Below are positions 37,738 through 49,167 of a DNA stretch of 64,000 nt, piece by piece. The notes below the pieces were generated by a model. The model was not told the DNA's origin, ran no database searches, and was given only the letters and a program-made list of their open reading frames with translations. Where the stretch lies: positions 2,138,900-2,202,899 of the forward strand of contig OY734805.1 of assembly GCA_963457525.1 (NCBI GenBank). The letters are read 5' to 3'. Position 1 is the first letter of the stretch; every line of letters begins with the position of its first letter. Both the position numbers and the translations under genes were made by a program. This DNA is from Parvibaculaceae bacterium. GTDB taxonomy: Bacteria > Pseudomonadota > Alphaproteobacteria > JAPOUT01.

Positions 37738-38514
37738 TCAGGAGCCCCCGGTTCCAAAGGTGCGCTCCTCAACCTCGATAATCTGCGCACGGGAAAAGCC
37801 GCTGTCGCGGACTTTCTGCAGGGTGAGGCTCGCTGCATTCCAATCTCTCCAAGGCCCCAAGCGAATGCGATAGACAGTCCCGTTGTTCGTGGCAATCGTG
37901 TTGATGTGAGAATTTCCAAAGCGGCTCAAGATGTCACGCAAACTTACAGCGTTTTCATAGCTCTGCAGCGCCCCGGCCTGCACGAATAAATCCCGCCGAG
38001 AGACTTTGGGCGCCGTCCTGCTCGGCGCCTTCGCTACAGGCTGCCCTTTGTCCGGACCGCCGGCGAGATATTTCACCCGAACCTTGGCAACGCCCTGGTG
38101 TCGAAATCCCAAGTCCTCCGCCGCACGACGCGATACGTCTATAATACGATCCTTCACAAAGGGACCGCGGTCATTCACGCGCAAGACCAGGGAGCGCCCG
38201 TTATCGAGATTGGTCACGCGCACAAGCGTGGGCATCGGCAAGGTCGTATGCGCGGCCGTGAGCGCGTCTTGGTCGAAAATTTCGCCGTTGGCGGTCTTAT
38301 TGCCGTGGAAGCCGGGGCCGTACCACGAGGCAAGCCCGATTTCATCATAGTTGGGGTCATGTTCCGGGTAATACCACTGCCCCTTAATCTGGTACGGTTT
38401 GCCGATTTTATACTTGCCCGTAAGCGGCGGGTGATCATCCCATAGCGGGCCCAGCGAGCAGGCCGAAAGCATCAGCATCGCAAAGACAAGGATGTTAACG
38501 CGTGCAAATGTCAT
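37738..38514 (-). CDS. rlpA: Septal ring lytic transglycosylase RlpA (DPBB + SPOR domains)
   Basis: Lipobox LSAC; a DPBB domain (GLASWYGPGFHGNKTANGE...VTNLDNGRSLVLRVNDRGP) and a C-terminal SPOR-like domain. Confidence 0.85.
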   Translation of the reverse strand: MTFARVNILVFAMLMLSACSLGPLWDDHPPLTGKYKIGKPYQIKGQWYYPEHDPNYDEIGLASWYGPGFHGNKTANGEIFDQDALTAAHTTLPMPTLVRVTNLDNGRSLVLRVNDRGPFVKDRIIDVSRRAAEDLGFRHQGVAKVRVKYLAGGPDKGQPVAKAPSRTAPKVSRRDLFVQAGALQSYENAVSLRDILSRFGNSHINTIATNNGTVYRIRLGPWRDWNAASLTLQKVRDSGFSRAQIIEVEERTFGTGGS

Positions 38515-39602
38515 GAGAGCGGCCTTAATGCTGACGGCGACCAGCCGATGCTCGTCTGCTCCCCGGCGGAGAGAATGGGTCTGCCTGTGGTGTTACGCAT
38601 GGTTACAACAATGGGTTCCTCTATAGCGTCTAATTCCATGTAATAATAGGTCATATCGCCGTAATATGCCACATTGGCGACTTTTGCCGGAACGCTGCGC
38701 TCTGCCGGCAGGTTTGCCTCCAGCAACAGCGACATATGCTCGGGCCGCATTCCCAGCGTGATATCGCCCGATTTGGGCGCGAAACCTTCGGGGCGCTCCA
38801 CCTCCACCTCCCCGAACGCGGGGATGTCGACGCGAAGGGTTTGCCCGGGAGATTCGCGCAGCCGTCCATTGAGGAAGTTCATGCCGCCGATAAAATCGGC
38901 GACACGCAGGTTAACGGGACGGTCATAGACTTCCTGCGGAGTCGCGAGTTGGGCGATTTTGCCCTCGAACATCACGGCGATGCGGTCGGACATGGTGAGA
39001 GCTTCTTCCTGGTCGTGGGTGACAAGAATGAAAGTGATGCCGACCTGGAGTTGCAAGCGCCGAAGTTCGAGTTGCATTTGTTCGCGCAGCTTTTTATCAA
39101 GCGCGGAAAGAGGCTCGTCCAAGAGCAGGACTTTCGGGCGCAACACGAGCGCGCGTGCAAGGGCGACGCGCTGCTTTTGCCCGCCGGAGAGCTCCTGCGG
39201 GCGACGTTGGTCGTAACCTTCGAGTCCGACCATCGCGAGCGCTTCGTGAACCCGCCTGATATGTTCGCTCTTATCGAGGCGGAGCGAGCGCAGCCCGAAA
39301 CCGACATTGTCGACAACGTTCAAGTGCGGGAAAATTGCATAATTTTGAAACACCATGTTCGAAGGCCGCAAGTTCGCGGGCACGCCGGTCATGTCTTGTT
39401 CATCGATGAAGATTTTGCCCTCGCTCGGCTCGATGAGTCCGGCAATGCATGAAAGCAGGGAGGTTTTCCCGCATCCGGACGGTCCCAGCAGAGAAAAGAA
39501 TTCACCCCGGCGCACTTCAAGGTCGACATTGTCGATCGCATGAAAGTCGCCGTATCTTTTGCTGATTCCCTCGGCCCGGATGATGGGGGCGTGCTGCTGC
39601 AT
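38511..39602 (-). CDS. ABC transporter ATP-binding subunit, spermidine/putrescine (PotA) type
   Basis: Walker A GPSGCGKTS, signature LSGGQKQR, Walker B LLLDEP and a C-terminal TOBE-like domain. Starts at MQQHAPIIRAEGISKRY. Confidence 0.85.
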   Translation of the reverse strand: MQQHAPIIRAEGISKRYGDFHAIDNVDLEVRRGEFFSLLGPSGCGKTSLLSCIAGLIEPSEGKIFIDEQDMTGVPANLRPSNMVFQNYAIFPHLNVVDNVGFGLRSLRLDKSEHIRRVHEALAMVGLEGYDQRRPQELSGGQKQRVALARALVLRPKVLLLDEPLSALDKKLREQMQLELRRLQLQVGITFILVTHDQEEALTMSDRIAVMFEGKIAQLATPQEVYDRPVNLRVADFIGGMNFLNGRLRESPGQTLRVDIPAFGEVEVERPEGFAPKSGDITLGMRPEHMSLLLEANLPAERSVPAKVANVAYYGDMTYYYMELDAIEEPIVVTMRNTTGRPILSAGEQTSIGWSPSALRPLS

Positions 39603-39619
39603 GATGAATCTCCCTCTTT

Positions 39620-40411
39620 TTATTTTACCGTTTGCATTCGTTTTTCCGCATGTCGGCGCAACAAGTCCGCGCCCCATAATAGCAGAAATGAGAATAAAAG
39701 TATCAGGCTTCCAAGCGCAAGAATGTTGGGGAGTTTTGCGATAAAGCGCAGCTGGCTCCATATGTATACCGGCAGGGTCGGCTCGTTTCCGGCAAGGAAG
39801 AAGGCAACCAGGAATTCGTCAAACGAAATTGTAAAGGTGATGAGCAAGCTCGCCAGCACGCCCGGCAGGATGAGCGGAAGCGTTACGCGCAAAAACACCC
39901 AGAAAGGCGTCTCCCCGAGGTCTTGTGCGGCGTATTCCAGGCTCTTATCGAGTCCCTCGAAGCTCGATCGCAGCACGATAATCGCAAACGGCAGGCATAG
40001 CAGGATGTGTCCGAGCGCGACGGTGAAGAGCGACAAATTGAGTCCGAGCTGCTGTAACACTATCAACAGCGAGATTCCGACAATGATTTCCGGAAGCACA
40101 AGCGGCGACATAATGAGTGCGGTAATGGGAGCGCGGCCGAGGAAGTTGTAATTTGTGATTGCGCGCGCGGCAAGCATTCCGAGCAACGTGCTCGTAAGCG
40201 CGGCGACGATTCCGACCTTGAGGCTGTTTTGCAGGGCGCTGTGCAGAACGGCTTCACCAAGCAGGTTCTTATACCATTGCGTCGTGAGCTCCTCGATGGG
40301 AAAGGAGACTATCGGCGATGCATTAAAAGAAAAAATGGGTATCAGCAGCACCGGCAGATATAGAAAGAGTATGTATGCGAGCGCGTAGATGCCGAGAGAT
40401 TTCTTTCCCAT
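39620..40411 (-). CDS. ABC transporter permease (PotC-like)
   Basis: Six-TM BPD_transp_1 permease. Start placed at the internal ATG (MGKKSLGIYA), 5 nt after the upstream stop; the listed GTG at 40450 is an alternative. Confidence 0.75.
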   Translation of the reverse strand: MGKKSLGIYALAYILFLYLPVLLIPIFSFNASPIVSFPIEELTTQWYKNLLGEAVLHSALQNSLKVGIVAALTSTLLGMLAARAITNYNFLGRAPITALIMSPLVLPEIIVGISLLIVLQQLGLNLSLFTVALGHILLCLPFAIIVLRSSFEGLDKSLEYAAQDLGETPFWVFLRVTLPLILPGVLASLLITFTISFDEFLVAFFLAGNEPTLPVYIWSQLRFIAKLPNILALGSLILLFSFLLLWGADLLRRHAEKRMQTVK

Positions 40412-40416
40412 TCCCG

Positions 40417-41286
40417 TCACCTTATCCGTTTGATGAATGCACGCAGGCACACGACCATCGTTACCGAAAGGATGGCAACGATGATCATGGCGTTAACCGC
40501 GAGCGCGGCGCCGAGGGGCCAGTTGTTCGCCTTGGAGACCTGGAGGCGTATCATGTTCGCGATCATGACGCCGTCCTTGCCGCCGACAAGTCCGGGAGTG
40601 ATGTAGTCGCCGACAGTCGGTATGAAAACAATGAGCAGGGCCGCAATGACTCCGGGCATGGAGAGCGGCAGAATGACCCGGTAGAAACGCCGCCATGCGG
40701 CATCGCCGAGGTCGCGTGCGGCGTTGATGAGCGAGCGGTCGATTTTCTCGAGTGATACGAAAATGGGAAGTATGGCAAAAGGTCCCCATGCGTGTGTAAG
40801 CGTAATGACGACGGCGTTGACGTTGTAGAGCATTGCGCGGATGGGTTCATCAATGATTCCAAGTCCGATGAGTCCGGAGTTAAGCACGCCGTTGTATCCG
40901 AGCATGATTTTCCAGGCAAAAACCCGAAGCAGGTAGCTTGTCCAGAAAGGTATGGTGATGAGGAACAGCCAAAGGGTTTTGCGCTCCTGGGGCACATGGA
41001 AGGAGATGTAATATGCAAGCGGATAGGCAAGAGTCACCGTGAAGAAGGTCACGACCGCGGAAATCCCCAGCGAACGCCACATGAGGGTTGTATAGATGGG
41101 CTCGCTCCACGCGGCGATGTAGTTTGCCCATGTAAAGTTTTTATCGATGTCGAGATAGTTTTGCGTCCAGAAGCTGAAGGTGATGATCGTAAAAATCGGC
41201 ACCACCAGCATCGCGGCGGCGTAGATGAAGGGAGCGCCAATAAGCAACGTAGCGCGTTTGCCGTTTGCTTCTCCCTCGGCGGACAT
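40417..41286 (-). CDS. ABC transporter permease (PotB-like)
   Basis: 289-aa membrane protein with the permease EAA-like loop (AARDLGA.W.RFYRVILPL). Confidence 0.8.
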   Translation of the reverse strand: MSAEGEANGKRATLLIGAPFIYAAAMLVVPIFTIITFSFWTQNYLDIDKNFTWANYIAAWSEPIYTTLMWRSLGISAVVTFFTVTLAYPLAYYISFHVPQERKTLWLFLITIPFWTSYLLRVFAWKIMLGYNGVLNSGLIGLGIIDEPIRAMLYNVNAVVITLTHAWGPFAILPIFVSLEKIDRSLINAARDLGDAAWRRFYRVILPLSMPGVIAALLIVFIPTVGDYITPGLVGGKDGVMIANMIRLQVSKANNWPLGAALAVNAMIIVAILSVTMVVCLRAFIKRIR

Positions 41287-41288
41287 GT

Positions 41289-42515
41289 TCAGCCGGCCTT
41301 TACGGCGAGGTCCTGATTGGCTTTCTCGAGCAAACCCGCGGGCGGCTCTTTGTCCAGGTCAAGCACCGGCAAGACGGCGCGCAAATGGTCGTGATGGCTT
41401 CGTACGCCATACTCAAGGTCGGAGAGGCACACGCCCCGATAGGCGGACGAGAGCGCGGCTTCACATGACCAAATGGTTAGTTGTATGTCCTCTTCGATGG
41501 TATCGCGGTCGATGCGCGAGGAGAGATACCGCGCGACACGAGTTGCACGGTCTTCATCGGCATAGCCATAGACGGCGCCGCGCTGATAGGAGCGCCGCGC
41601 CGAGAGCGGAAATTCTTGATAGAAGCCGATGGAGTCGGGATAGAAAGTGAGCACGGCGTTGGGGAAAATACCGAGATAAATCCAGAGCTTTTGGTGGCTT
41701 TCGGGAAGATGGGGCATGTCGGGAAGGATGCGCTTGTAGTTTCGCACCGACCACAGCCCGCCCTCTTTTTTGTTGAAGCGTCCGACCGTGCGCGAAGTTC
41801 CGCCGATATAGGCGCCGTCTTGATAGAGACCGCCATAAAGGTCGTTGAGGGCCGGGTGCGCGCGTTCCACGTGGTATCCCTCGTTATCAACATCGCGCAC
41901 GGCTTTCCAGTTGACGTCTGTTTCGACGTGCCAAAAACTTCCCGGCGAACGCAGCGGCCGGGAAAAGTAAGGCTCCAGTTCGCTTTTGTGGGGCGCCATG
42001 ATGTCCGCAATCGACGGTTGCGAACTCGGCTTGAAGCGCACAAACAAGAAGCCGAACCACTCTTCCATTTCCAGCGGCGGAAGCGTGCGCCGCAAATCTT
42101 CGAGGGGCGGAAAACTATCGGGCTGTGCGGGAGAACGCAACGTTCCATCGTGATTGAAGCACCAGCCGTGGAACGGACAAGAAATGACCGCACCGACGCG
42201 GCCCGCGGGCTTGTCGAAGACCCGGGAGCCCCGGTGCGGGCAGACATTATGAAAGGCGCGGACAACCCCGTCGCGCCCGCGCAGGAGAACCCCGCGCTCG
42301 CCGAGCATATCGAAGCAGAAATAATCCCCTGCTTCCGGGATGTCGCTTTCGTGCCCGGCCAGCTGCCAGGTCTTCCGGAAGAGCTCTTCCTGTTCGAGTT
42401 GCGTAAGTTCTTCGCTGAAGTAACTCCATCCGGGCAGCCCGCGCCGGTCCCATTGGTTGGGGGGAGTCTCGACGCGGGGCTGTGCTTGTCTCCAGATGGA
42501 TTCTCTCGCGAGCAT
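41289..42515 (-). CDS. Rieske [2Fe-2S] non-heme-iron oxygenase alpha subunit embedded in the ABC-importer operon
   Basis: Rieske motif CPHRG...CPFHGW; a C-terminal catalytic domain carries candidate mononuclear-iron ligands (NEGYHVERAH and a downstream Asp). Stop and start are each within 3 nt of neighbouring transporter genes. Confidence 0.75.
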   Translation of the reverse strand: MLARESIWRQAQPRVETPPNQWDRRGLPGWSYFSEELTQLEQEELFRKTWQLAGHESDIPEAGDYFCFDMLGERGVLLRGRDGVVRAFHNVCPHRGSRVFDKPAGRVGAVISCPFHGWCFNHDGTLRSPAQPDSFPPLEDLRRTLPPLEMEEWFGFLFVRFKPSSQPSIADIMAPHKSELEPYFSRPLRSPGSFWHVETDVNWKAVRDVDNEGYHVERAHPALNDLYGGLYQDGAYIGGTSRTVGRFNKKEGGLWSVRNYKRILPDMPHLPESHQKLWIYLGIFPNAVLTFYPDSIGFYQEFPLSARRSYQRGAVYGYADEDRATRVARYLSSRIDRDTIEEDIQLTIWSCEAALSSAYRGVCLSDLEYGVRSHHDHLRAVLPVLDLDKEPPAGLLEKANQDLAVKAG

Positions 42516-42538
42516 GCGAATCGCCGTTGATTGGAATC

Positions 42539-43615
42539 CTAGAATCCGGCTTTGATTTTCTCGAACTCGGCGATCATGCGCTCGCGCAATCCGCTTGAGA
42601 CCGGAGACTGCCAGAAGGTTTTGTCCTTGAAACTGTCGAGGTTGGTGTATCCCATGCTCGCAAGAACTTCCTGGTCCAGCTTGTCGAGGGCCGCCTGGTT
42701 GGAGTGCCCGTATCCCCAGTCGTAGACGAGGTGCTCGGCCGTGTCGTCGGAGAGGAAAGCGTTCATGAAGTCATAGGCTTTTGCCTCGGAGCCCTCGCCT
42801 CCTTTGAGCAGGACGTATCCGCACACCCAGGTGCTGATCCCCTCGTCGGTGTCGCGAGCCATAATGACAGGATGACCTTCGTCGGAGAGCCGTGTGGCGG
42901 TTTCGTTCCACGCCCATGCAACGTTGACCTCGCCCGATGCCATCAGTTGTGCAAGCGCAGCGGGATCCGACCAGTAGGCGCGGACATTCTCGTGGGCCTT
43001 TCGAAGCCATTCGGATGCGGTTTCGAACTGCGCGTCCGTAGCGTTGGTCCAATCCAGGACTCCGGTTGCCAAGAAAGCGAGGGCGTAGGCGTCATCAACA
43101 TTGTCGCCAATGGAGGTTTGCCCCTGGAATTTGGGGTTGATGAAAGCTTGCAGCGAACGCACGTCGGCGGCGTTAACCTTGTCGGTTCGATAGGTCAGCG
43201 CAGTGTTTCCCCAATCGAGCGGTATCATGTATTGGCCGTCCGCACCGGAGAGCCCGGGGATGTTCTCCATTCCGGCAACAAGGGTTGCAAAAGCGGGAAT
43301 GCGGGAGGTGTCCCAGGGTTGAAGGAGGTCCGCGTCGCGCCACTTGGGAATTGACTGCGCGCAAGGGTGTGCTACGTCCGCCTTAAATCCGGCGCGAAGT
43401 TTTTGAAAAGCCTCTTCTTCGTCGCCAAAGAAGGAGAAAGTCGGAGAGTCTCCGTGCTTCGTGACATAGTCTTGATGAAAGTTTGGCTCTTCGTATCCCG
43501 CCCAATCGAAGACGACGAGCTCATCGTCTGCCGCGATTGCGTTGTTGAGTGCAAGGTTGGACAGCAGACAGACAGAGGCAAAGCCAACAGCAAAAGTTTG
43601 AAGTGTTTTATTCAT
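42539..43615 (-). CDS. PotD/PotF-family periplasmic substrate-binding protein
   Basis: Signal peptide MNKTLQTFAVGFASVCLLSNLA...A, then an SBP type-2 fold of polyamine-binding size (358 aa). Confidence 0.75.
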   Translation of the reverse strand: MNKTLQTFAVGFASVCLLSNLALNNAIAADDELVVFDWAGYEEPNFHQDYVTKHGDSPTFSFFGDEEEAFQKLRAGFKADVAHPCAQSIPKWRDADLLQPWDTSRIPAFATLVAGMENIPGLSGADGQYMIPLDWGNTALTYRTDKVNAADVRSLQAFINPKFQGQTSIGDNVDDAYALAFLATGVLDWTNATDAQFETASEWLRKAHENVRAYWSDPAALAQLMASGEVNVAWAWNETATRLSDEGHPVIMARDTDEGISTWVCGYVLLKGGEGSEAKAYDFMNAFLSDDTAEHLVYDWGYGHSNQAALDKLDQEVLASMGYTNLDSFKDKTFWQSPVSSGLRERMIAEFEKIKAGF

Positions 43616-43801
43616 GGGGTTGCTCCTTGTGCATAAGTGTTACAAAGCGGATATTCTAGCACGCGGGCGCTTTTTTGGAAATTGGCCGTTTGTGCATTCG
43701 AACGGCTTCCGGGCGCCGATTCCCGTGATTGTTGATAAGTCACGAATTTGTGATATATTGAAATAGTCAATGAATCGAATCAGCAACAAGGAGTAAAAAT
43801 C

Positions 43802-44020
43802 ATGAAAATAACACTGACAACGACTTTCGCAATTGCCTTGATGGTGTTTGCGTTCAACACAAATCCTGTTATGGCGTTCGGCGGCGATGGCATCTGGGCC
43901 TCCAAGCCGCAGGTGGACGAGGTGCAAGATCCGGATGAAACCGGGAATGAACGAGGCGTTGCCGATTCCGGCAATGAAGCTTCCACGTCGGCAGCATCAG
44001 AAGGAGGCACTAACGAATAA
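43802..44020 (+). CDS. Small secreted acidic hypothetical peptide
   Basis: 72 aa. Signal peptide MKITLTTTFAIALMVFAFNTNPVMA; AAGGAG sits 8 nt before the ATG. It marks the start of a low-GC patch. Confidence 0.5.
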   Translation: MKITLTTTFAIALMVFAFNTNPVMAFGGDGIWASKPQVDEVQDPDETGNERGVADSGNEASTSAASEGGTNE

Positions 44021-44250
44021 GAGTTAGTGATGACACTAGCGACAAAATAGGAAAGGATGATACCGGCAGCACGGGCACAATAACCAGCGGCCAATAACGA
44101 ACCTACACAGCCCCTGCTCCCAAGCCGGTAGCGGGGGTTGCGTACTTCCTAAAAGTTTTTCTATCGCGGGGGAGGATTAGTTGGATGATGAAGGTGATTT
44201 TGCCGAGTTTTTAAGACGGCGGCAAAATTGAGAACCATTGCAGATGTTTA

Positions 44251-44478
44251 TTAGCTGACTATCAATCCGACTATCAAACTCATAACAGCAACGCCAAGAC
44301 CAACCACAACTGCTATCTCCAAGAGAAAAACTCTGGAGTTTTTCTCTGATATCGCGCGCAACTCTCCAAGGGCTTTTTCTACGTCCGTTCGAAGTCCTTC
44401 GACAGCGGCTTGATTCTTGGAAAGAGCAGATTCATTATCGGCATGGGCTGTTTTGTTGTTGGCTTCCACGGTTTTCAT
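44251..44478 (-). CDS. Tail-anchored coiled-coil mini-protein, paralog 1
   Basis: 75 aa. The N-terminal MKTVEANNKTAHADNESAL...EKALGELRAISEKNSR reads as charged and coiled-coil-like; the C-terminus VFLLEIAVVVGLGVAVMSLIVGLIVS is a single TM helix ending at the stop. Confidence 0.6.
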   Translation of the reverse strand: MKTVEANNKTAHADNESALSKNQAAVEGLRTDVEKALGELRAISEKNSRVFLLEIAVVVGLGVAVMSLIVGLIVS

Positions 44479-44543
44479 CCATCAAGCTATGAAAAGGAAA
44501 ATCCTCGCGCTTATTTGAAAATGAGAAATATTACAGATATTTA

Positions 44544-44771
44544 TTAGCTGACTATCAAGCCGGCTATCAAACTCATAACAACAACGCCAAGACCAACCAC
44601 AACTGCTATCTCCAAGAGAAGAATTCTGGAGTTTTTTTCTGTGGTCGTGCGGAGCTCCTCAAAAGCTTTCTCTATATCCGTTCGAAGTTTTTCAAAATCC
44701 ATACGAATCCGTTCAGCGGCAGATTCATTACCGGTATGGGCTACTTTGTTGTTAGATTCCATGGTTTTCAT
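44544..44771 (-). CDS. Tail-anchored coiled-coil mini-protein, paralog 2
   Basis: MKTMESNNKVAHTGNESAAERIRMDFEKLRTDIEKAFEELR...ILLLEIAVVVGLGVVVMSLIAGLIVS. GGAG sits 7 nt before the internal ATG at 44771, so the GTG-extended ORF was rejected. Its 3' 110 nt are about 90% identical to paralog 1 at the DNA level. Confidence 0.6.
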   Translation of the reverse strand: MKTMESNNKVAHTGNESAAERIRMDFEKLRTDIEKAFEELRTTTEKNSRILLLEIAVVVGLGVVVMSLIAGLIVS

Positions 44772-44875
44772 GTTCGGCTCCACATTAGTCCAACATTTCG
44801 ATTTGATATCGCGGTTGCTGACGATAGAACTCCTGAATCATTCAGCAAAAGACAATTGAATTCTGTCAGTGGCGT

Positions 44876-45085
44876 TTATAGAAATCTGAGTATCAAAGTT
44901 ATAACACCGACAGCAACGCCTATAAAAATCATCATCTTCGTAGTATGGGCATTGAAACTTTTCTCCATATCCGTACGAAGTTTCTCGTTATCGGCACGAT
45001 ATTCCTCGTTACTTGCACGAAGTCGCTCAATAGCGGCTTCGGTCTTGGAAAGAGCAGATTCATTATCAGCTTTCATAACTTTCAT
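44876..45085 (-). CDS. Tail-anchored coiled-coil mini-protein, paralog 3 (more diverged)
   Basis: MKVMKADNESALSKTEAAIERLRASNEEYRADNEKLRTDMEKSF...MMIFIGVAVGVITLILRFL. GGAGG sits 5 nt before the ATG at 45085; the longer ORF to 45232 lacks an RBS. Confidence 0.55.
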   Translation of the reverse strand: MKVMKADNESALSKTEAAIERLRASNEEYRADNEKLRTDMEKSFNAHTTKMMIFIGVAVGVITLILRFL

Positions 45086-45288
45086 ATTCGCCTCCACATT
45101 GTTCCTCAACAAGTCAATTTGATGTTGTTGTTCAGCCAGTTTCTTCTCCGTCTCGGTATCCGTGATACAGCAAAATCCTCCAGAAACGCTGCAAAAATCC
45201 GAATTACTTCCTAGAACGATTCTCCGCCCCATTTTACCGCCAAATCAACAGAACGTAAAACCCGGTAAATTCCCAATTTTTTTGGCAA

Positions 45289-46674
45289 TTATGCTGATTT
45301 TTCGGATAGCTCCGCGACAGTGCTTTCGAGGATATCCATCATATTGGAGAGTTCGTTGCGGGTGATAACCAGCGGCGGTGAAAACACGCACATATTGATC
45401 AGGGGGCGCACGATGAGCCCCTTTTCCTCGCAAGCCTGGTCGATTTGATATCCGATATCCCTATCCAGTTGGAGGCGCTCGGGCTCGGAGTCGTTTTGTG
45501 ATTGGATACGCCCCTCAATGCACCCGACGAGCCCGATGGCCCGGGCATCTCCGACAACGGGGTAGCGCTTGAGGGCTTCAAGACGCTCGAGGAAGTAAGG
45601 GGAGATTTCGCGCACATGCTCGAGGATGTTTTCGCGCTGCATGATTTCAATGTTTTTAAGTGCGGCGGCGCAAGGAATGGGGTGGCCGGAATAGGTATAA
45701 CCGTTGGAAAAGAGAACGTCTTCCTGCCCGGCGCCGCTGATGGCATTGATGATGCGATCGGAAATAATGCACGCTCCGAGGGGTTGATATCCCGAGGTAA
45801 GCCCTTTGGCGCAAGTGATGATATCGGGCGTGATGCCGAAAACCTCCTGCGACGAGAACCAATGCCCGAGTCTTCCGAACGCACAGACGACTTCATCGGA
45901 GATGTACAGCACGTCATATTTGCGGCAGATTTCGAGCGTTTTCCGGTGGTAGTCCGGCGGCGGGATGATAACTCCACCGGAAGCGAGCACCGGCTCAGCG
46001 ATAAATCCGCCCACGTTCTCCGCACCGGCTTCGAGAATGGTGTCCTCAAGATCTTTGACTTTTGCATCGCACCACTCCTCAAGGCTCGTGCCTTCGGGGC
46101 GCAAGTTCGGATTAACATTGGGGAGGATGCGCACGAGAGGGCTGTCGATGTCGAACCAGCTTTTGTCGCGCTCTTTTCCCGAAACGCTTGCCGCCAGGAA
46201 GGTTGAGCCGTGGTAGCCTTTCTCCCGCGCGATCATGATTTTTTTATTGGGCCGTCCGAGCCGGTTATTATAGAAATGCATAGCCCGAATGGCGGTGTCG
46301 ACGGCGGTTGAGCCCCCGGTTGTGAAGAAAACATTGTTGAGGTCTCCGGGCGCCATTTCCGCAAGTGTTTGCGCGAGAGTTGCGCCGGGAGCGGATGTCA
46401 TGAACCACGGCGAGCAATAGGAGAGCGTGTCTATCTGTTCGACGATTGCGTCCGCGATTTCCTTGCGTCCATGGCCGATTTGCACGCACCACATGCCTCC
46501 CGGGCCGTCAATGAGCTTGCGTCCATGCTGGTCGTAGATATAGATGCCCTCGGCCTTTGTGGCGATGAGCCGGTTGGCGTTGCCATAGGACTCCATCGCC
46601 TCCCACGGATGGAGATAGTGGCGATTGTCATACTCGGTGAGCGTTACTGCCGTGTTGGAGCGTGTTTTATTCAT
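45289..46674 (-). CDS. Class III (omega) aminotransferase, PLP-dependent
   Basis: 461 aa carrying motifs typical of this class: GGMWCVQIGHG, YHGST, DEVVCAFGRLG and the Schiff-base region TCAKGLTSGY. Confidence 0.85.
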   Translation of the reverse strand: MNKTRSNTAVTLTEYDNRHYLHPWEAMESYGNANRLIATKAEGIYIYDQHGRKLIDGPGGMWCVQIGHGRKEIADAIVEQIDTLSYCSPWFMTSAPGATLAQTLAEMAPGDLNNVFFTTGGSTAVDTAIRAMHFYNNRLGRPNKKIMIAREKGYHGSTFLAASVSGKERDKSWFDIDSPLVRILPNVNPNLRPEGTSLEEWCDAKVKDLEDTILEAGAENVGGFIAEPVLASGGVIIPPPDYHRKTLEICRKYDVLYISDEVVCAFGRLGHWFSSQEVFGITPDIITCAKGLTSGYQPLGACIISDRIINAISGAGQEDVLFSNGYTYSGHPIPCAAALKNIEIMQRENILEHVREISPYFLERLEALKRYPVVGDARAIGLVGCIEGRIQSQNDSEPERLQLDRDIGYQIDQACEEKGLIVRPLINMCVFSPPLVITRNELSNMMDILESTVAELSEKSA

Positions 46675-47153
46675 GGTTTCTGTTTAACATGTTTTGCGGG
46701 CTCCAACAATGTTTCGGCGTGTGCCTCGAAGCGTTGCCGGATTTGTTTGACAAGATCGTCTCGTACGCGCCGATAGGCTTCGAGCTTGTGCTCGCGGCTG
46801 CCGGTGGTGTCGGACGGGTCCGGGGTCGGCCAATACTCCACCGCAACCGAAATTGCGCGGGTGAATTCATTTGCGCACTCGAGCGACTCCGGCGTGAGTG
46901 CGACGATAAGGCTGAAGGACGTATCCGCCAGGTTGTCAAAACTTTTGGCTTTGTGCCTGGAGAGGTCGATGTTGATTTCATGCATGACGGCAAGAACGAA
47001 GGGATCGATTTCGCTTGTGACGAGTCCGCACGAGTCGACATAGATTTTATCGCCCAGGATATGCTTAAGGATGCCCTCCGCCATTGGCGAGCGGATGGCG
47101 TTTTGGTTGCAGGCAAACAATACGGCGTCGGGGAGTTGTTGTTTTTTGCCCAT
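46671..47153 (-). CDS. Low-molecular-weight protein-tyrosine phosphatase / ArsC-like (LMWPc)
   Basis: VLFACNQNAIRSPMAEG is the C-X5-R P-loop, with a DP motif further on. Starts at the ATG at 47153. Confidence 0.75.
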   Translation of the reverse strand: MGKKQQLPDAVLFACNQNAIRSPMAEGILKHILGDKIYVDSCGLVTSEIDPFVLAVMHEINIDLSRHKAKSFDNLADTSFSLIVALTPESLECANEFTRAISVAVEYWPTPDPSDTTGSREHKLEAYRRVRDDLVKQIRQRFEAHAETLLEPAKHVKQKP

Positions 47154-47161
47154 TTTGCCTC

Positions 47162-47650
47162 TCATTCGTTGATGTGCAACGCACAGATAAGGGTGAAGAG
47201 CCGCCTGGATGTCTCCCAATCGACGTCAATTTTGCCGGCGAGCCGTTCCTGCAGCAGCCTTGAGCCATCGTCATGCAGCCCCCGCCGCCCCATATCGATG
47301 GCCTCAATATGCGCGGACGATCCCGCCTGCATGGCTTTCCAATAGCTTTGGCAGATAAGAAAATAATCCTTCAGCAGTTTCTGAAACGGCGAGAGCGAGA
47401 GAAGAAGCCGCCCGTGCGGATCGTTGTCCTTTGTCGCGATGTCGAAAAGGAGCCGGTTATCCTCAACTCCGAGGCGCAACCGGTACGGCCCCCCCTTGCT
47501 TTGAACCGGGGCAAAATAGTTGCTCTCGAGCAAATCGTAGATGGCGACCTTGCATTCATGCTCTACGGTTTCGGAGCGCTGAAAAGCGGTTGTATCGTCC
47601 AGATCAACGCTAACGAGGAAAAAGTCTCCCTTGCGTTTATCGGGATTCAT
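47162..47650 (-). CDS. UPF0262-family protein
   Basis: 162 aa. Placement between hisD and the LMW-PTP matches the UPF0262 context as I recall it from other Alphaproteobacteria. Confidence 0.55.
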   Translation of the reverse strand: MNPDKRKGDFFLVSVDLDDTTAFQRSETVEHECKVAIYDLLESNYFAPVQSKGGPYRLRLGVEDNRLLFDIATKDNDPHGRLLLSLSPFQKLLKDYFLICQSYWKAMQAGSSAHIEAIDMGRRGLHDDGSRLLQERLAGKIDVDWETSRRLFTLICALHINE

Positions 47651-49167
47651 GGTTTTTTCATGCGCAGTTTCACGGCCCGTGCGTGGGCGTCCAGTCCTTC
47701 GGCTTGTGCGAGGGTGACGGCCGCGGGGGCGAGTTTCGCAAGCGCTTCGGGAGGACATTGCAGCAGCGAAGTCCGCTTGAGAAAATCGAGAGTCGATAGG
47801 CCGGAAGCAAAACGCGCGGTCGCGTTGGTGGGCAGCACGTGATTTGAACCGCCGAGATAATCGCCGATGGTTTCCGGCGTGTGGGCGCCGAGGAAGATGG
47901 CACCGGCGTTGTGGATGGTTTCGGCGATTTGCCCGGCATTTTCCGAGAAGATTTCCAGATGCTCGGGGGCGAGCCGGTCAACGATTTCGGCCCCCTCCCC
48001 CATGGACTTGACCAGGATGATCGCGCCGAAGTTTTTCCAGCTTTCCCCCGCGATGTCTTTGCGCGGAAGGCTTGCGAGTTGCGCCTCGACGGCCTTGGCG
48101 ACCTCGTCGCCAAGCGCGGCGTTATCTGTGATAAGGATGGCGCGTGCCGATGTATCGTGTTCGGCCTGCGAGAGGAGATCCGCGGCAATCCACTCGGCCC
48201 ACCCGGCTTGTTCGGCCGGTTTGACCTGCTTGACCTGTCCGGCCTGTTTGACCTGCTTGACCTGTCTGGCCTGCTCGGTCTGTTCGGCCCACCCGGCCTG
48301 TTCGGCCGATTTGGCCTGTTCGGTTTGTTCGGCCTGTTTGACCTGCCCGGCCTGCCCGGCCGGTTCGGCTTGCGAGGGGAGACTCACGGTAGCCCTCCCG
48401 CCCGGTTCGGTTCTCCCGGCGTTGTTGTCCCCCTCGGCAAGCACGACGATTTCGGACGGCCCCGCAATGGCATCAATGCCGCATATGCCGAAGACTTGCC
48501 GTTTGGCTTCGGCAACGAATGCGTTGCCCGGTCCTATGATTTTATCGACCCGCTCGATGCCGTCGCAGCCGAAGGCTAGCGCAGCGATGGCGTGGGCTCC
48601 GCCGAGGCGGTAAATCTCCGTGATGCCGGCGATATGCGCGGCGGCGAGCACGAGCGGCTGGATAGCGCCCTGCGGCGTCGGCGTTGCGATGGCAATGCGC
48701 GGGACGCCGGCGATGCGGGCGGGAATCGCGTTCATGAGGACGGAACTCGGATAGCTCGCGGTCCCGCCGGGGACGTAGAGTCCGACGGATTGCAGGGGTT
48801 TCCAGCGATACCCGAGCCCGACGCCTATGTCATCGGTAAAGAAGAGGTCTTCGGGCAGTTGCCGGCGGTGGAAGGCCTCAATGCGCTCGGCGGCGAGGCG
48901 CAGGGCATCAATGGTCTCGGGCTCGCACATCTCAAAGGCGGTGATGATCGCCTCTTCGGGAATGGCGAAGGCTTCATTGTGGGGCAGTTCGAAATGGTCG
49001 AATTTTTTGGTGTATTCGCGCAGGGCGGCATCGCCCTCGAGTCGCACGCGCTCGAGTATGCCGGCCACCTGGCGCGAAACATCCCCTTCGGCTTCGCGCC
49101 GGCGTCCCAGGAATTCGAGAAACCGGGAATCAAAATCTTTTTGCGCTGTATCGAAGCGGTGACTCAC
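47647..49167 (-). CDS. hisD: Histidinol dehydrogenase carrying an in-frame low-complexity insertion of about 70 aa
   Basis: N-terminal and C-terminal HisD segments are intact (GGAHAIAALAFG, AGPSEIVVLA, ADLLSQAEHD, metal-binding region). Between AGPSE..LA and WIAADLLSQAEHD sits QAGQVKQAEQTEQAKSAEQAGWAEQTEQARQVKQVKQAGQVKQVK.... Total length is 506 aa against the usual ~430. Confidence 0.8.
   Translation of the reverse strand: MSHRFDTAQKDFDSRFLEFLGRRREAEGDVSRQVAGILERVRLEGDAALREYTKKFDHFELPHNEAFAIPEEAIITAFEMCEPETIDALRLAAERIEAFHRRQLPEDLFFTDDIGVGLGYRWKPLQSVGLYVPGGTASYPSSVLMNAIPARIAGVPRIAIATPTPQGAIQPLVLAAAHIAGITEIYRLGGAHAIAALAFGCDGIERVDKIIGPGNAFVAEAKRQVFGICGIDAIAGPSEIVVLAEGDNNAGRTEPGGRATVSLPSQAEPAGQAGQVKQAEQTEQAKSAEQAGWAEQTEQARQVKQVKQAGQVKQVKPAEQAGWAEWIAADLLSQAEHDTSARAILITDNAALGDEVAKAVEAQLASLPRKDIAGESWKNFGAIILVKSMGEGAEIVDRLAPEHLEIFSENAGQIAETIHNAGAIFLGAHTPETIGDYLGGSNHVLPTNATARFASGLSTLDFLKRTSLLQCPPEALAKLAPAAVTLAQAEGLDAHARAVKLRMKKP
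48190..48390. repeat. Imperfect tandem repeat tract inside the hisD reading frame
   Basis: Units ggcccacccggc[ct]tgttcggcc and ctgtttgacctgcttgacctgtc[ct]ggcc each recur twice, alongside several shorter ctgttcgg / cctgcccggc units. The tract is in frame and encodes Q/A/E/K-rich repeats. Confidence 0.8.

Follow-up and report, generated by a model that had tools for sequence, protein, structure and literature searches.

What are the three small genes arranged in tandem on the minus strand of a low-GC patch in the genome of a Parvibaculaceae bacterium, and are they still able to yield a product? These genes, here called par1, par2 and par3, lie in a stretch of 64,000 nucleotides of contig OY734805.1 (positions 2,138,900 to 2,202,899), hereafter "the window", to which all coordinates given without a locus name refer. 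Both the DNA-level alignment of the three genes and the E-values, ranging from 1e-19 to 4e-36, with which their products match a common family profile indicate that they are homologous, in keeping with a first-pass annotation of this DNA that had described them as paralogous minus-strand mini-genes of 69–75 amino acids (aa). What had escaped that annotation is that these proteins of 69–75 aa are truncated versions of a family form of 80–105 aa. The explanation that we favor, with a confidence only slightly above even, is that the family represents an accessory tail-anchored stalk resembling that of the DUF1640 proteins.

Hydropathy analysis and structure prediction agree on the architecture that had been proposed for these proteins, namely a charged amphipathic helix followed by a C-terminal transmembrane (TM) segment with which the protein ends. 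The Kyte–Doolittle mean over 19 residues reaches 2.5–2.8 in the C-terminal segment of the window proteins, with 0–2 residues left after it, and a C-terminal TM is present in 209 of the 222 family proteins collected (94%), the median number of residues following it being 4. The AlphaFold2 model obtained with the family alignment for the long form of par3 consists of one unbroken helix (residues 2–94, with a mean pLDDT, the per-residue confidence score, of 91), and the Foldseek search carried out with this model gave no match, as is expected of a single helix. Given the lack of a signal peptide, a soluble part with 31–40% charged residues, a TM rich in Gly and Ala (..VVVGLGVAVMSLIVGLI..) and the prediction of a single helix, we infer that the protein is tail-anchored, with its N-terminus in the cytoplasm, and self-associates.

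The family has a narrow distribution, occurs in many copies and is without a name in Pfam, PHROGs, NCBIfam and PADLOC; in none of these four collections did the window proteins find a match at threshold, and the suggestion that they belong to a distinct family is thereby upheld. A word-indexed search of 5.8 billion proteins yielded 10 relatives of par2, all of them small and unannotated and, where named, all from "Hyphomicrobiales bacterium" metagenome-assembled genomes (MAGs), and 20 further relatives were obtained when the extended reading frame of par3 served as the query. When 1.84 billion cluster representatives were searched exhaustively with a profile, 99 clusters were obtained with E ≤ 1e-3, 40 of them with E ≤ 1e-10, and 239 proteins of the word-indexed database were matched by a profile built from 40 diverse members. 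Among the matches listed (120 of the 239) the name, where one is given, is "hypothetical protein", the source being a MAG of Hyphomicrobiales, Aestuariivita or Gemmatimonadota, and no precomputed Pfam family is assigned save for one marginal PF07798 entry. Most of the members thus come from Hyphomicrobiales and other marine MAGs, and the subfamily beginning with MDTETKEKL was found, by a profile search of genome contigs, in a single GTDB species representative. Within a genome, on the other hand, the copies are numerous: proteins P0001, P0015, P0020 and P0149 are encoded on contigs of 2,838,304 bp and P0065 bears the locus-tag prefix of the MAG of P0001, which indicates at least seven copies in the genome under study, and approximately 15 proteins among the matches listed come from contigs of 3,643,513 bp, so that some genomes hold about 15 copies or more.

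The canonical member of the family begins with MDTETKEKLTEQQHQ, the N-terminus in the homologues conforming to MD(T/A)ETEKKLTEQQHQI(E/D)..(V/M)EA(N/K)M, and its open reading frame (ORF) comprises three parts: the conserved N-terminal peptide MDTETKEKLTEQQHQIEMLRTDVEANM, a charged helix in which 7- and 11-residue units with (L/F)R(T/A)D are repeated a variable number of times, and one of several interchangeable TM tails that end the protein. In its broader version, (L/F/I/M/V)R(T/A/S)D, the motif is present in 185 of the 224 proteins collected. The units of the stalk are 7, 11 or 18 residues long, which are classical coiled-coil periodicities, and their number differs between near-identical paralogues; DMANWKT occurs once, twice or three times, DMADWKT four times and NEKAIGGLRTD three times, the variation being evident in P0134, P0104, P0140, P0143, P0033, P0035 and P0122. 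In addition, at least four unrelated-looking TM tails are joined to the same N-terminal module. As to base composition, the GC content at third codon positions (GC3) is 0.44–0.51 in all copies of the MDTETKEKL type, compared to 0.69–0.73 in the host genes, whereas in the distant subfamily of locus L019 it is like that of its host. A separate case is that of P0099 (207 aa), a chimeric ORF. Its ~145 N-terminal residues (GKAFERLVKVFLENDP...DTGIDL), which we take to resemble the beginning of a restriction-enzyme or helicase-type protein, continue in frame into the stalk and TM of the family, and the impression is that of a defence gene into which a cassette has recombined.

Each canonical ORF is part of a cassette in which a promoter-like site is followed by a leader of ~60 nt and by an AGGGAGG Shine-Dalgarno (SD) sequence, located 9 nt before the ATG in copies other than those of the window. 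The long copies have ~130 nt of upstream sequence in common, and a sigma-70-like element, TTT(A/G)CG-17-TA(G/A)AAT, occupies the same offset (−95 to −84) in five of nine long copies from other loci. A candidate promoter of this type precedes par3, and its −10 hexamer is overlapped by an upstream in-frame ATG (45232-45230); the 118-aa ORF starting from this ATG is therefore an unlikely product, provided that the promoter is used. The mean pairwise identity among long copies is 80% over the first 78 coding nt, 64% over the next 72 nt, 59% in the leader and 48% further upstream. A second potential initiation site is embedded in the coding sequence, where TGGAGG is kept 5 nt before the internal Met27 codon in nine of nine long copies and Glu24 is always encoded by GAG, a triplet used at 48% of the other Glu codons of these genes; the long copies being related to one another, this conservation is no more than suggestive.

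The three copies of the window depart from this layout at their 5′ ends. Par3 aligns over its full length with homologues of the MDTETKEKL type and its N-terminal region is kept in frame, but its start codon is ACG, and never ATG, in seven of seven haplotypes, and gene callers assign to it 69 or 66 aa. Par1 and par2 begin exactly at the internal Met (profile position 27), the first ~26 codons being gone, and remnants of the long-form leader and N-terminal codons, with a deletion and frameshifts, are recognizable upstream of par2. With normal initiation, the canonical long protein cannot be made by any of the three copies. Met27 is kept by all three, and GGAG(G) lies just before it in par2 and par3, not in par1. 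Accordingly, the earlier view that each gene has an SD sequence of its own does not apply to par1, and for the other two it needs to be qualified in that the GGAG(G), although present, is in-frame coding sequence (V-E-A-N-M). Likewise, the NNK..H and EKNSR motifs thought to be shared by the three proteins are both absent from par3; the juxtamembrane sequences of the window proteins are EKNSRVLLLE and, in par3, NAHTTKMMIF, and their C-termini read ..LIVS and ..LRFL. The array is degenerate and would either make short tail-anchored forms from a conserved internal start or consist of relics.

Regarding start codons, two copies, that of the window (45161-45163) and one at locus L014 (2577-2579), have ACG at the canonical start together with an intact SD at the usual distance, and in P0020 (locus L017) it is the internal Met27 codon that has become ACG; three ATG-to-ACG changes at start-type codons among nine copies seem more than casual.

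Where the family comes from is suggested by its comparison with known families. The tests that had been proposed for XhlA, DUF883 and DUF1640 gave a recurrent signal only with the last, and this signal is below threshold and restricted to the half of the model corresponding to stalk and TM. Indeed, the DUF1640/CCDC90-like family PF07798 is the only one matched repeatedly, by 14 of 22 members at E < 1 and by 14 of 40 at E < 0.01, with scores of 14–31 bits compared with a gathering cut-off of 33.5. In the family proper the matches cover model positions ~76–170 or ~68–171 of 175, taken to represent stalk and TM, and only the two most distant matches, P0113 and P0120, extend further towards the N-terminus of the model; P0120, which contains the beta-layer motif LATKAD, has the best score (30.9 bits). 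When the soluble part was reversed and the TM kept, the matches at E < 0.01 fell from 14 to 0 of 40, which implies that the signal depends on the order of the residues, beyond what composition plus TM would produce. The DUF1640/CCDC90-like proteins (MCUR1, CCDC90B, Fmp32 and prokaryotic homologues) also have a coiled-coil stalk and a single C-terminal TM, and the matches are co-linear with the C-terminal half of the model. The DUF1640 stalk begins with a beta-layer motif, [aliphatic]-A-T-K-[polar]-[D/E] (PMC4786415). Unlike DUF1640, our family has (L/F)R(T/A)D units in place of this motif, a helix predicted to be continuous, a length of only 69–105 aa, a very high copy number and a composition atypical of the host. 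Taken together, the sequence comparisons point to a headless, distant relative of the DUF1640 stalk and TM, and not to a member of that family.

How the family diversifies is documented more directly. Par1 and par2 form a mosaic in which coding nt 131–228 are 94% identical (6 differences) and nt 1–130 only 70%, so that the near-identical 3′ block noticed at the outset is confirmed; the block belongs to a direct repeat of 176 nt with 85% identity and a spacing of 293 bp. At the asd locus of the same species three structural haplotypes exist. In the first (L015 6001-6565) a long copy of 88 aa is followed by a short copy of 81 aa starting from the Met27 equivalent and then by HipA, major facilitator superfamily (MFS) and Fic genes. 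The second (L104 6001-6291) has flanks identical to those of the first and a single gene of 96 aa, P0021, which consists of residues 1–61 of P0015 joined to the tail of the short copy; its DNA is that of L015 minus 274 bp, and the junction falls within a 55-nt perfect repeat of the two copies. The third (L016 6001-6321) has one long copy and a right flank that is unlike that of L015 and lacks the HipA/MFS/Fic segment. The pair L104/L015 is a direct record of an unequal crossover that has made a new combination of N-terminal module and tail, and the same kind of event would explain the homogenized 3′ block of par1 and par2. The family, therefore, diversifies by recombination between its copies, as had been surmised from the par1/par2 block. 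At the window locus, on the other hand, the variation in copy number that the first-pass annotation had proposed to look for was not observed, three copies being present in seven of seven haplotypes.

According to the explanation that we favor, the array would express the 69–75-aa short forms, probably co-transcribed from the promoter-like site of par3, and each product would be a tail-anchored protein of the inner membrane with its N-terminus in the cytoplasm and 0–2 residues outside. The single long helix would self-associate into a parallel coiled-coil stalk held by the Gly/Ala-rich TM, and in evolutionary terms it would be a headless, distant relative of the stalk and TM half of the DUF1640/CCDC90-like proteins. 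Its role is presumably an accessory one, exerted where the membrane faces the cytoplasm and connected with the flexible genome. In the long forms, the conserved N-terminal peptide may represent the effector or partner-binding end of the molecule. The short forms could be either inactive relics or subunits that co-assemble with, and modulate, long forms encoded elsewhere in the genome (P0015, P0020).

Several considerations weigh against this explanation. The link to PF07798 is below the Pfam threshold in every member, par1, par2 and par3 give no PF07798 match at E ≤ 10, the head domain (model positions ~1–75) is absent and a regular-expression search detected the beta-layer motif only in P0113 and P0120 among the 224 proteins collected. 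The part that is most conserved in the family is missing from all three window copies, which may therefore be non-functional, and par1 is without a GGAG at a usable distance from its ATG. The dN/dS ratio (nonsynonymous over synonymous rate) between par1 and par2 is ~0.65–0.7 on small counts and falls short of demonstrating purifying selection. Furthermore, no recurrent partner gene was found among the loci examined, and with neighbors that change from locus to locus there is no partner that would point to a function.

Some of these same facts are what one would expect if the array were a relic, that is, if once-functional long-form copies were decaying in AT-rich accessory DNA without giving rise to a functional product. 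The change of the par3 start to ACG, the loss of the first ~26 codons from par1 and par2, the frameshifted remnants upstream of par2, the lack of an SD in par1, the par1/par2 dN/dS of ~0.7 and the finding that the closest relative of par1 and par2 outside the species is a long form (L001a/P0005, 64% identity) can all be read in this way. Yet, none of the three ORFs is disrupted in any of the seven haplotypes, par2 and par3 show no variation and par1 is the sole mini-gene to vary (the amino-acid changes indicated being T10A and F51L), and the 39 differences between par1 and par2 in the 130 positions of their 5′ halves include neither a stop nor a frameshift. Moreover, a short form starting from the same Met exists at the asd locus, many database members begin at profile position 27 or 30, and the in-frame GGAGG precedes Met27 in all nine long copies. 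On these grounds decay of the array appears unlikely, while being the best placed of the alternatives.

The premise that the mini-proteins are membrane-active toxins, either of the type I toxin-antitoxin kind or holin/XhlA-like, is, in our judgment, quite unlikely. Oligomerization of the helix would damage the membrane, antisense RNA or short antidote isoforms would restrain the individual copies and the loss of start codons would reflect selection against toxicity. The type I loci (Ldr, Ibs, Hok) consist of small hydrophobic-tailed proteins encoded in tandem, self-contained, intergenic cassettes with conserved leaders, and our genes, which are small, end in a strongly hydrophobic segment and form tandem, multi-copy, self-contained cassettes with a conserved leader, share several of these traits; HipA, Fic and defence genes are among their neighbors, the canonical start has become ACG in two separate copies (par3 and that of L014) and the pairing of long and short forms recalls the dual starts of holin and antiholin. 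The TM, however, is placed at the C-terminal end after a charged helix of 50–75 residues, and a long hydrophilic N-terminal stalk is atypical of type I toxins. Nor was an antisense sigma-70-like site found at a common position in the nine cassettes, in a consensus scan that could miss a small RNA (sRNA), Rfam gave no match beyond a chance-level snoRNA and thus no known sRNA, and the consensus fold of the leader has a low stability (−3.1 kcal/mol), a stem being possible between it and the sequence that follows the SD. As to XhlA (PF10779, cut-off 34.7 bits), the resemblance in layout, a short coiled coil with a C-terminal TM at the end of the protein, is real, but the window proteins match neither XhlA nor a holin and only P0120 among 40 relatives does match XhlA, with 22.3 bits; instead of a lysis cassette the neighbors in the window are an aminotransferase and the binding protein of an ATP-binding cassette (ABC) transporter.

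A phage origin was rejected: tblastn found no homologue in 50,697 phage genomes (INPHARED) or in PLSDB plasmids, two scans of IMG/VR gave none, and no endolysin or other phage gene lies near the window locus.

A bolder proposal, which we regard as a long shot, is that the mini-gene is a self-contained conflict module of a new kind, shuffled by recombination, in which one gene would yield two products, a long form with a conserved effector peptide and a short form initiated at the GGAGG-Met27 site. By assembling with the long form, the short one would neutralize or tune it in an antiholin-like or dominant-negative fashion. Arrays having only short forms would then be banks of antidotes against long forms encoded elsewhere or transferred in, and the number of heptads would set the specificity of assembly.

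A likeness to ElaB/YqjD had been suggested together with that to XhlA, and what stands of both is the layout; a sequence match, a lysis or phage context and the Pro-Trp and RR features were not found. If our proteins were analogues of ElaB, YqjD and YgaM, their N-terminus would tether and inactivate ribosomes after TM-driven dimerization. Layout and size are the same, several paralogues occur per genome and Gly is present in the TM; YqjD acts through its N-terminus and dimerizes through the TM (bioRxiv 10.1101/2024.08.16.608256), which parallels the N-terminal peptide that is the most conserved part of our family. The N-terminus of our proteins, however, is acidic, and the peptide is wholly missing from the window copies. 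Furthermore, no DUF883 match appears for the window proteins at E ≤ 10 or in the lists of families obtained with 22 or 40 relatives, and the helix-breaking Pro followed by a Trp near the TM and the C-terminal RR/RK that are conserved in DUF883 proteins (10.1101/2024.08.16.608256) have no counterpart in our family, whose helix is predicted to be continuous and whose C-terminus lacks RR. Neither yqjE- nor yqjK-like genes are found nearby, and the low GC and the location of the genes in islands are unlike what is expected of a housekeeping hibernation factor, so that this analogy must be deemed very improbable.

Finally, the idea of a SNARE-like (R-SNARE/VAMP mimic) effector of a host-associated bacterium, prompted by a Synaptobrevin match of the par3 long form (PF00957, 18.3 bits, E = 0.002) and by VAMP2 being the top PDB sequence match of the family profile (E = 0.012), can be dismissed almost entirely, the score being below the 26.4-bit cut-off, only 1 of 40 members matching, the VAMP2 alignment being carried by the TM with near-zero identities in the SNARE motif and with the conserved Arg of the family off the zero-layer Arg, the very hydrophobic TM favoring insertion in the bacterium's own membrane and no secretion-system gene being among those called in ~12 kb around the locus. 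In PADLOC-DB, only weak matches to coiled-coil segments of ZorA, PbeC and CorA were obtained (best E = 2e-4, 17.7 bits).

The best evolutionary analogy is perhaps offered by the Bdr proteins of Borrelia, which are multi-copy paralogues with a conserved N-terminal region, variable central repeats and a C-terminal membrane anchor, encoded in mobile or variable DNA and subject to recombination. The mini-proteins would resemble them in copy number, conserved N-terminus, variable repeats, C-terminal anchor and recombination, although they differ in repeat motif and taxon and have no Bdr match in NCBIfam or Pfam, as far as scans of these libraries go.

If the explanation favored here is correct, a searchable family, the "headless DUF1640-like tail-anchored mini-proteins", would be added to the few C-tail-anchored proteins of bacteria, and the prokaryotic side of the MCUR1/CCDC90 family would gain a minimal representative made of stalk and TM. 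The family also offers a clean natural case of modular evolution in very small genes, in which unequal crossover exchanges N-terminal peptides, repeat numbers and TM tails, one such crossover having been caught between co-occurring strains. Since there are ~7 to 15 or more copies per genome, foreign in composition and bordering variable islands, the family may have a role in the flexible or conflict part of the genome of uncultured marine bacteria, where hardly anything of this gene size has been characterized, and the dual start for long and short forms, if true, would represent a new regulatory design for small membrane proteins.

Table 1. Position of the mini-gene array, of its candidate signals and of the flanking genes in the window
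Feature	Coordinates	Strand	Remarks
PotD-like binding-protein gene	42539-43615	minus	One flank of the patch
Low-GC insertion	43616-45288		From the start of the PotD-like gene (43615) to the stop of the aminotransferase gene (45289)
Orphan 72-aa ORF	43802-44020	plus	Convergent with par1; signal-peptide-like N-terminus, acidic tail; coding status uncertain
9-bp hairpin UUUUGCCG..CGGCAAAA	44197-44229	minus	Just after the par1 stop; no U-run
Direct repeat, copy 1	44225-44400		Contains the par1 3′ block (nt 131–228 = 44251-44348)
par1, short form (75 aa)	44251-44478	minus	No canonical SD 5–10 nt before the ATG
Direct repeat, copy 2	44518-44693		par2 3′ half and ~25 nt downstream
par2, short form (75 aa)	44544-44771	minus	GGAG at 44778-44781; 100% identical to P0001
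par3, long-form copy (95 codons)	44876-45163	minus	Canonical start is ACG (45163-45161)
par3, short form (69 aa)	44876-45085	minus	Likely product; internal ATG at 45085-45083
In-frame GGAGG (codons V-E-A)	45091-45095	minus	Precedes the internal Met27 ATG of par3 by 5 nt
GGAGG, SD of the ancestral long form	45177-45181	minus	13 nt upstream of the par3 ACG
Candidate sigma-70-like promoter TTTACG-17-TAAAAT	45231-45259	minus	Cassette in the window
Class-III aminotransferase gene	45289-46674	minus	Other flank of the patch

The patch in which the array is found (Table 1) has the low GC ascribed to it from the start, i.e., 41–44% between 44150 and 45350, where the surrounding DNA has 55–60%, and 44.6% over the interval 43616-45288 compared with 56–60% in the host genes; the GC3 of the three mini-genes is 0.42–0.43 and that of the neighboring genes 0.67–0.70. 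The junction was compared in 80 metagenome loci having PotD homologues (53–66% identity). An aminotransferase homologue is also present in 53 of these loci, in many of which it lies directly upstream of PotD, on the same strand, with a gap of ~70–350 bp. The corresponding gap in the window is 1673 bp, and this difference from the distant relatives indicates that a conserved junction has been interrupted by foreign-looking DNA. Thus, the 1.67-kb patch is an insertion into an otherwise conserved aminotransferase–PotD junction. As to the genes around it, a Rieske-oxygenase homologue is present in 28 of the 80 PotD loci in an arrangement sometimes unlike that of the window (window 38500-46700; L023-L102), and ABC permease and ATPase genes were called beside the aminotransferase and PotD genes at the window locus; aminotransferase, PotD, Rieske and ABC genes look like an operon for the uptake and catabolism of an amine-type substrate.

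Other copies of the family directly follow housekeeping genes (asd, aldehyde dehydrogenase, ilvD), on the border of variable segments, and have as neighbors GmrSD, T5orf172/GIY-YIG, HNH, HipA/HipB, Fic and helix-turn-helix antitoxin-like genes, IS30-like transposases and DNA methyltransferases. The suggestion of a defence-associated module survives to the extent that genes for defence, toxins and mobile elements occur next to the copies checked; a lysis or phage context, on the other hand, is lacking. Several loci have 2–3 copies within a few kb, as at L019 (8001-8297, 12834-13109 and 16102-16296) and also L020 and L021, where 2–3 copies within 8 kb bracket small unannotated genes, IS30-like transposases and DNA methyltransferases; near-identical paralogues in genomes of this type differ only in the number of DMANWKT heptads. 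One copy (P0156, at L103 138-362), binned as Gemmatimonadota, is carried by an 11-kb contig together with RepA_C, a ParA-like ATPase and a DNA methylase. This contig is probably a small plasmid, which suggests either a route for transfer between phyla or a mis-binned contig.

The patch was also thought to encode a secreted acidic peptide of 72 aa. The ORF exists on the plus strand, with a hydrophobic N-terminus and a net charge of −8, but it is not of low GC (53%, with an intermediate GC3 of 0.55), it forms a singleton cluster among 15 billion sequences, found in this species only, and none of the fetched loci contains a relative. It is overlapped by an antisense ORF of 104 aa, and the case for its being a gene is uncertain. 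Its inclusion in one module with the mini-genes is unsupported, since nothing ties it to them functionally.

Between ~44000 and 46500, a tract that comprises the array and the whole aminotransferase gene, ~2.5 kb are almost without polymorphism among seven metagenome-derived haplotypes, compared with ~1% in the flanks. This fits a recent sweep or a recombination tract and is no proof of constraint on the mini-genes specifically. Further along, the segment 48000-48500, inside the histidinol dehydrogenase gene (hisD, 47647-49167), shows 17–62 differences per 500 nt between haplotypes, and in L003 and L004 hisD is split by the gene callers into a fragment of 118 aa, an antisense ORF of 218 aa being called as well; this hotspot may reflect either a divergent allele or a problem of assembly.

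The hairpin located 3′ of par1 has a fold energy that is not above that of shuffled sequences (z = 0.03), and the sequence 3′ of par1 is partly conserved in copies having the type-a tail. Long ORFs also run antisense to the mini-genes (44736-45122, 44945-45214 and 44641-44859, all on the plus strand), likewise at L001 and other loci, and are likeliest a by-product of the Glu/Lys/Leu-rich codon content.

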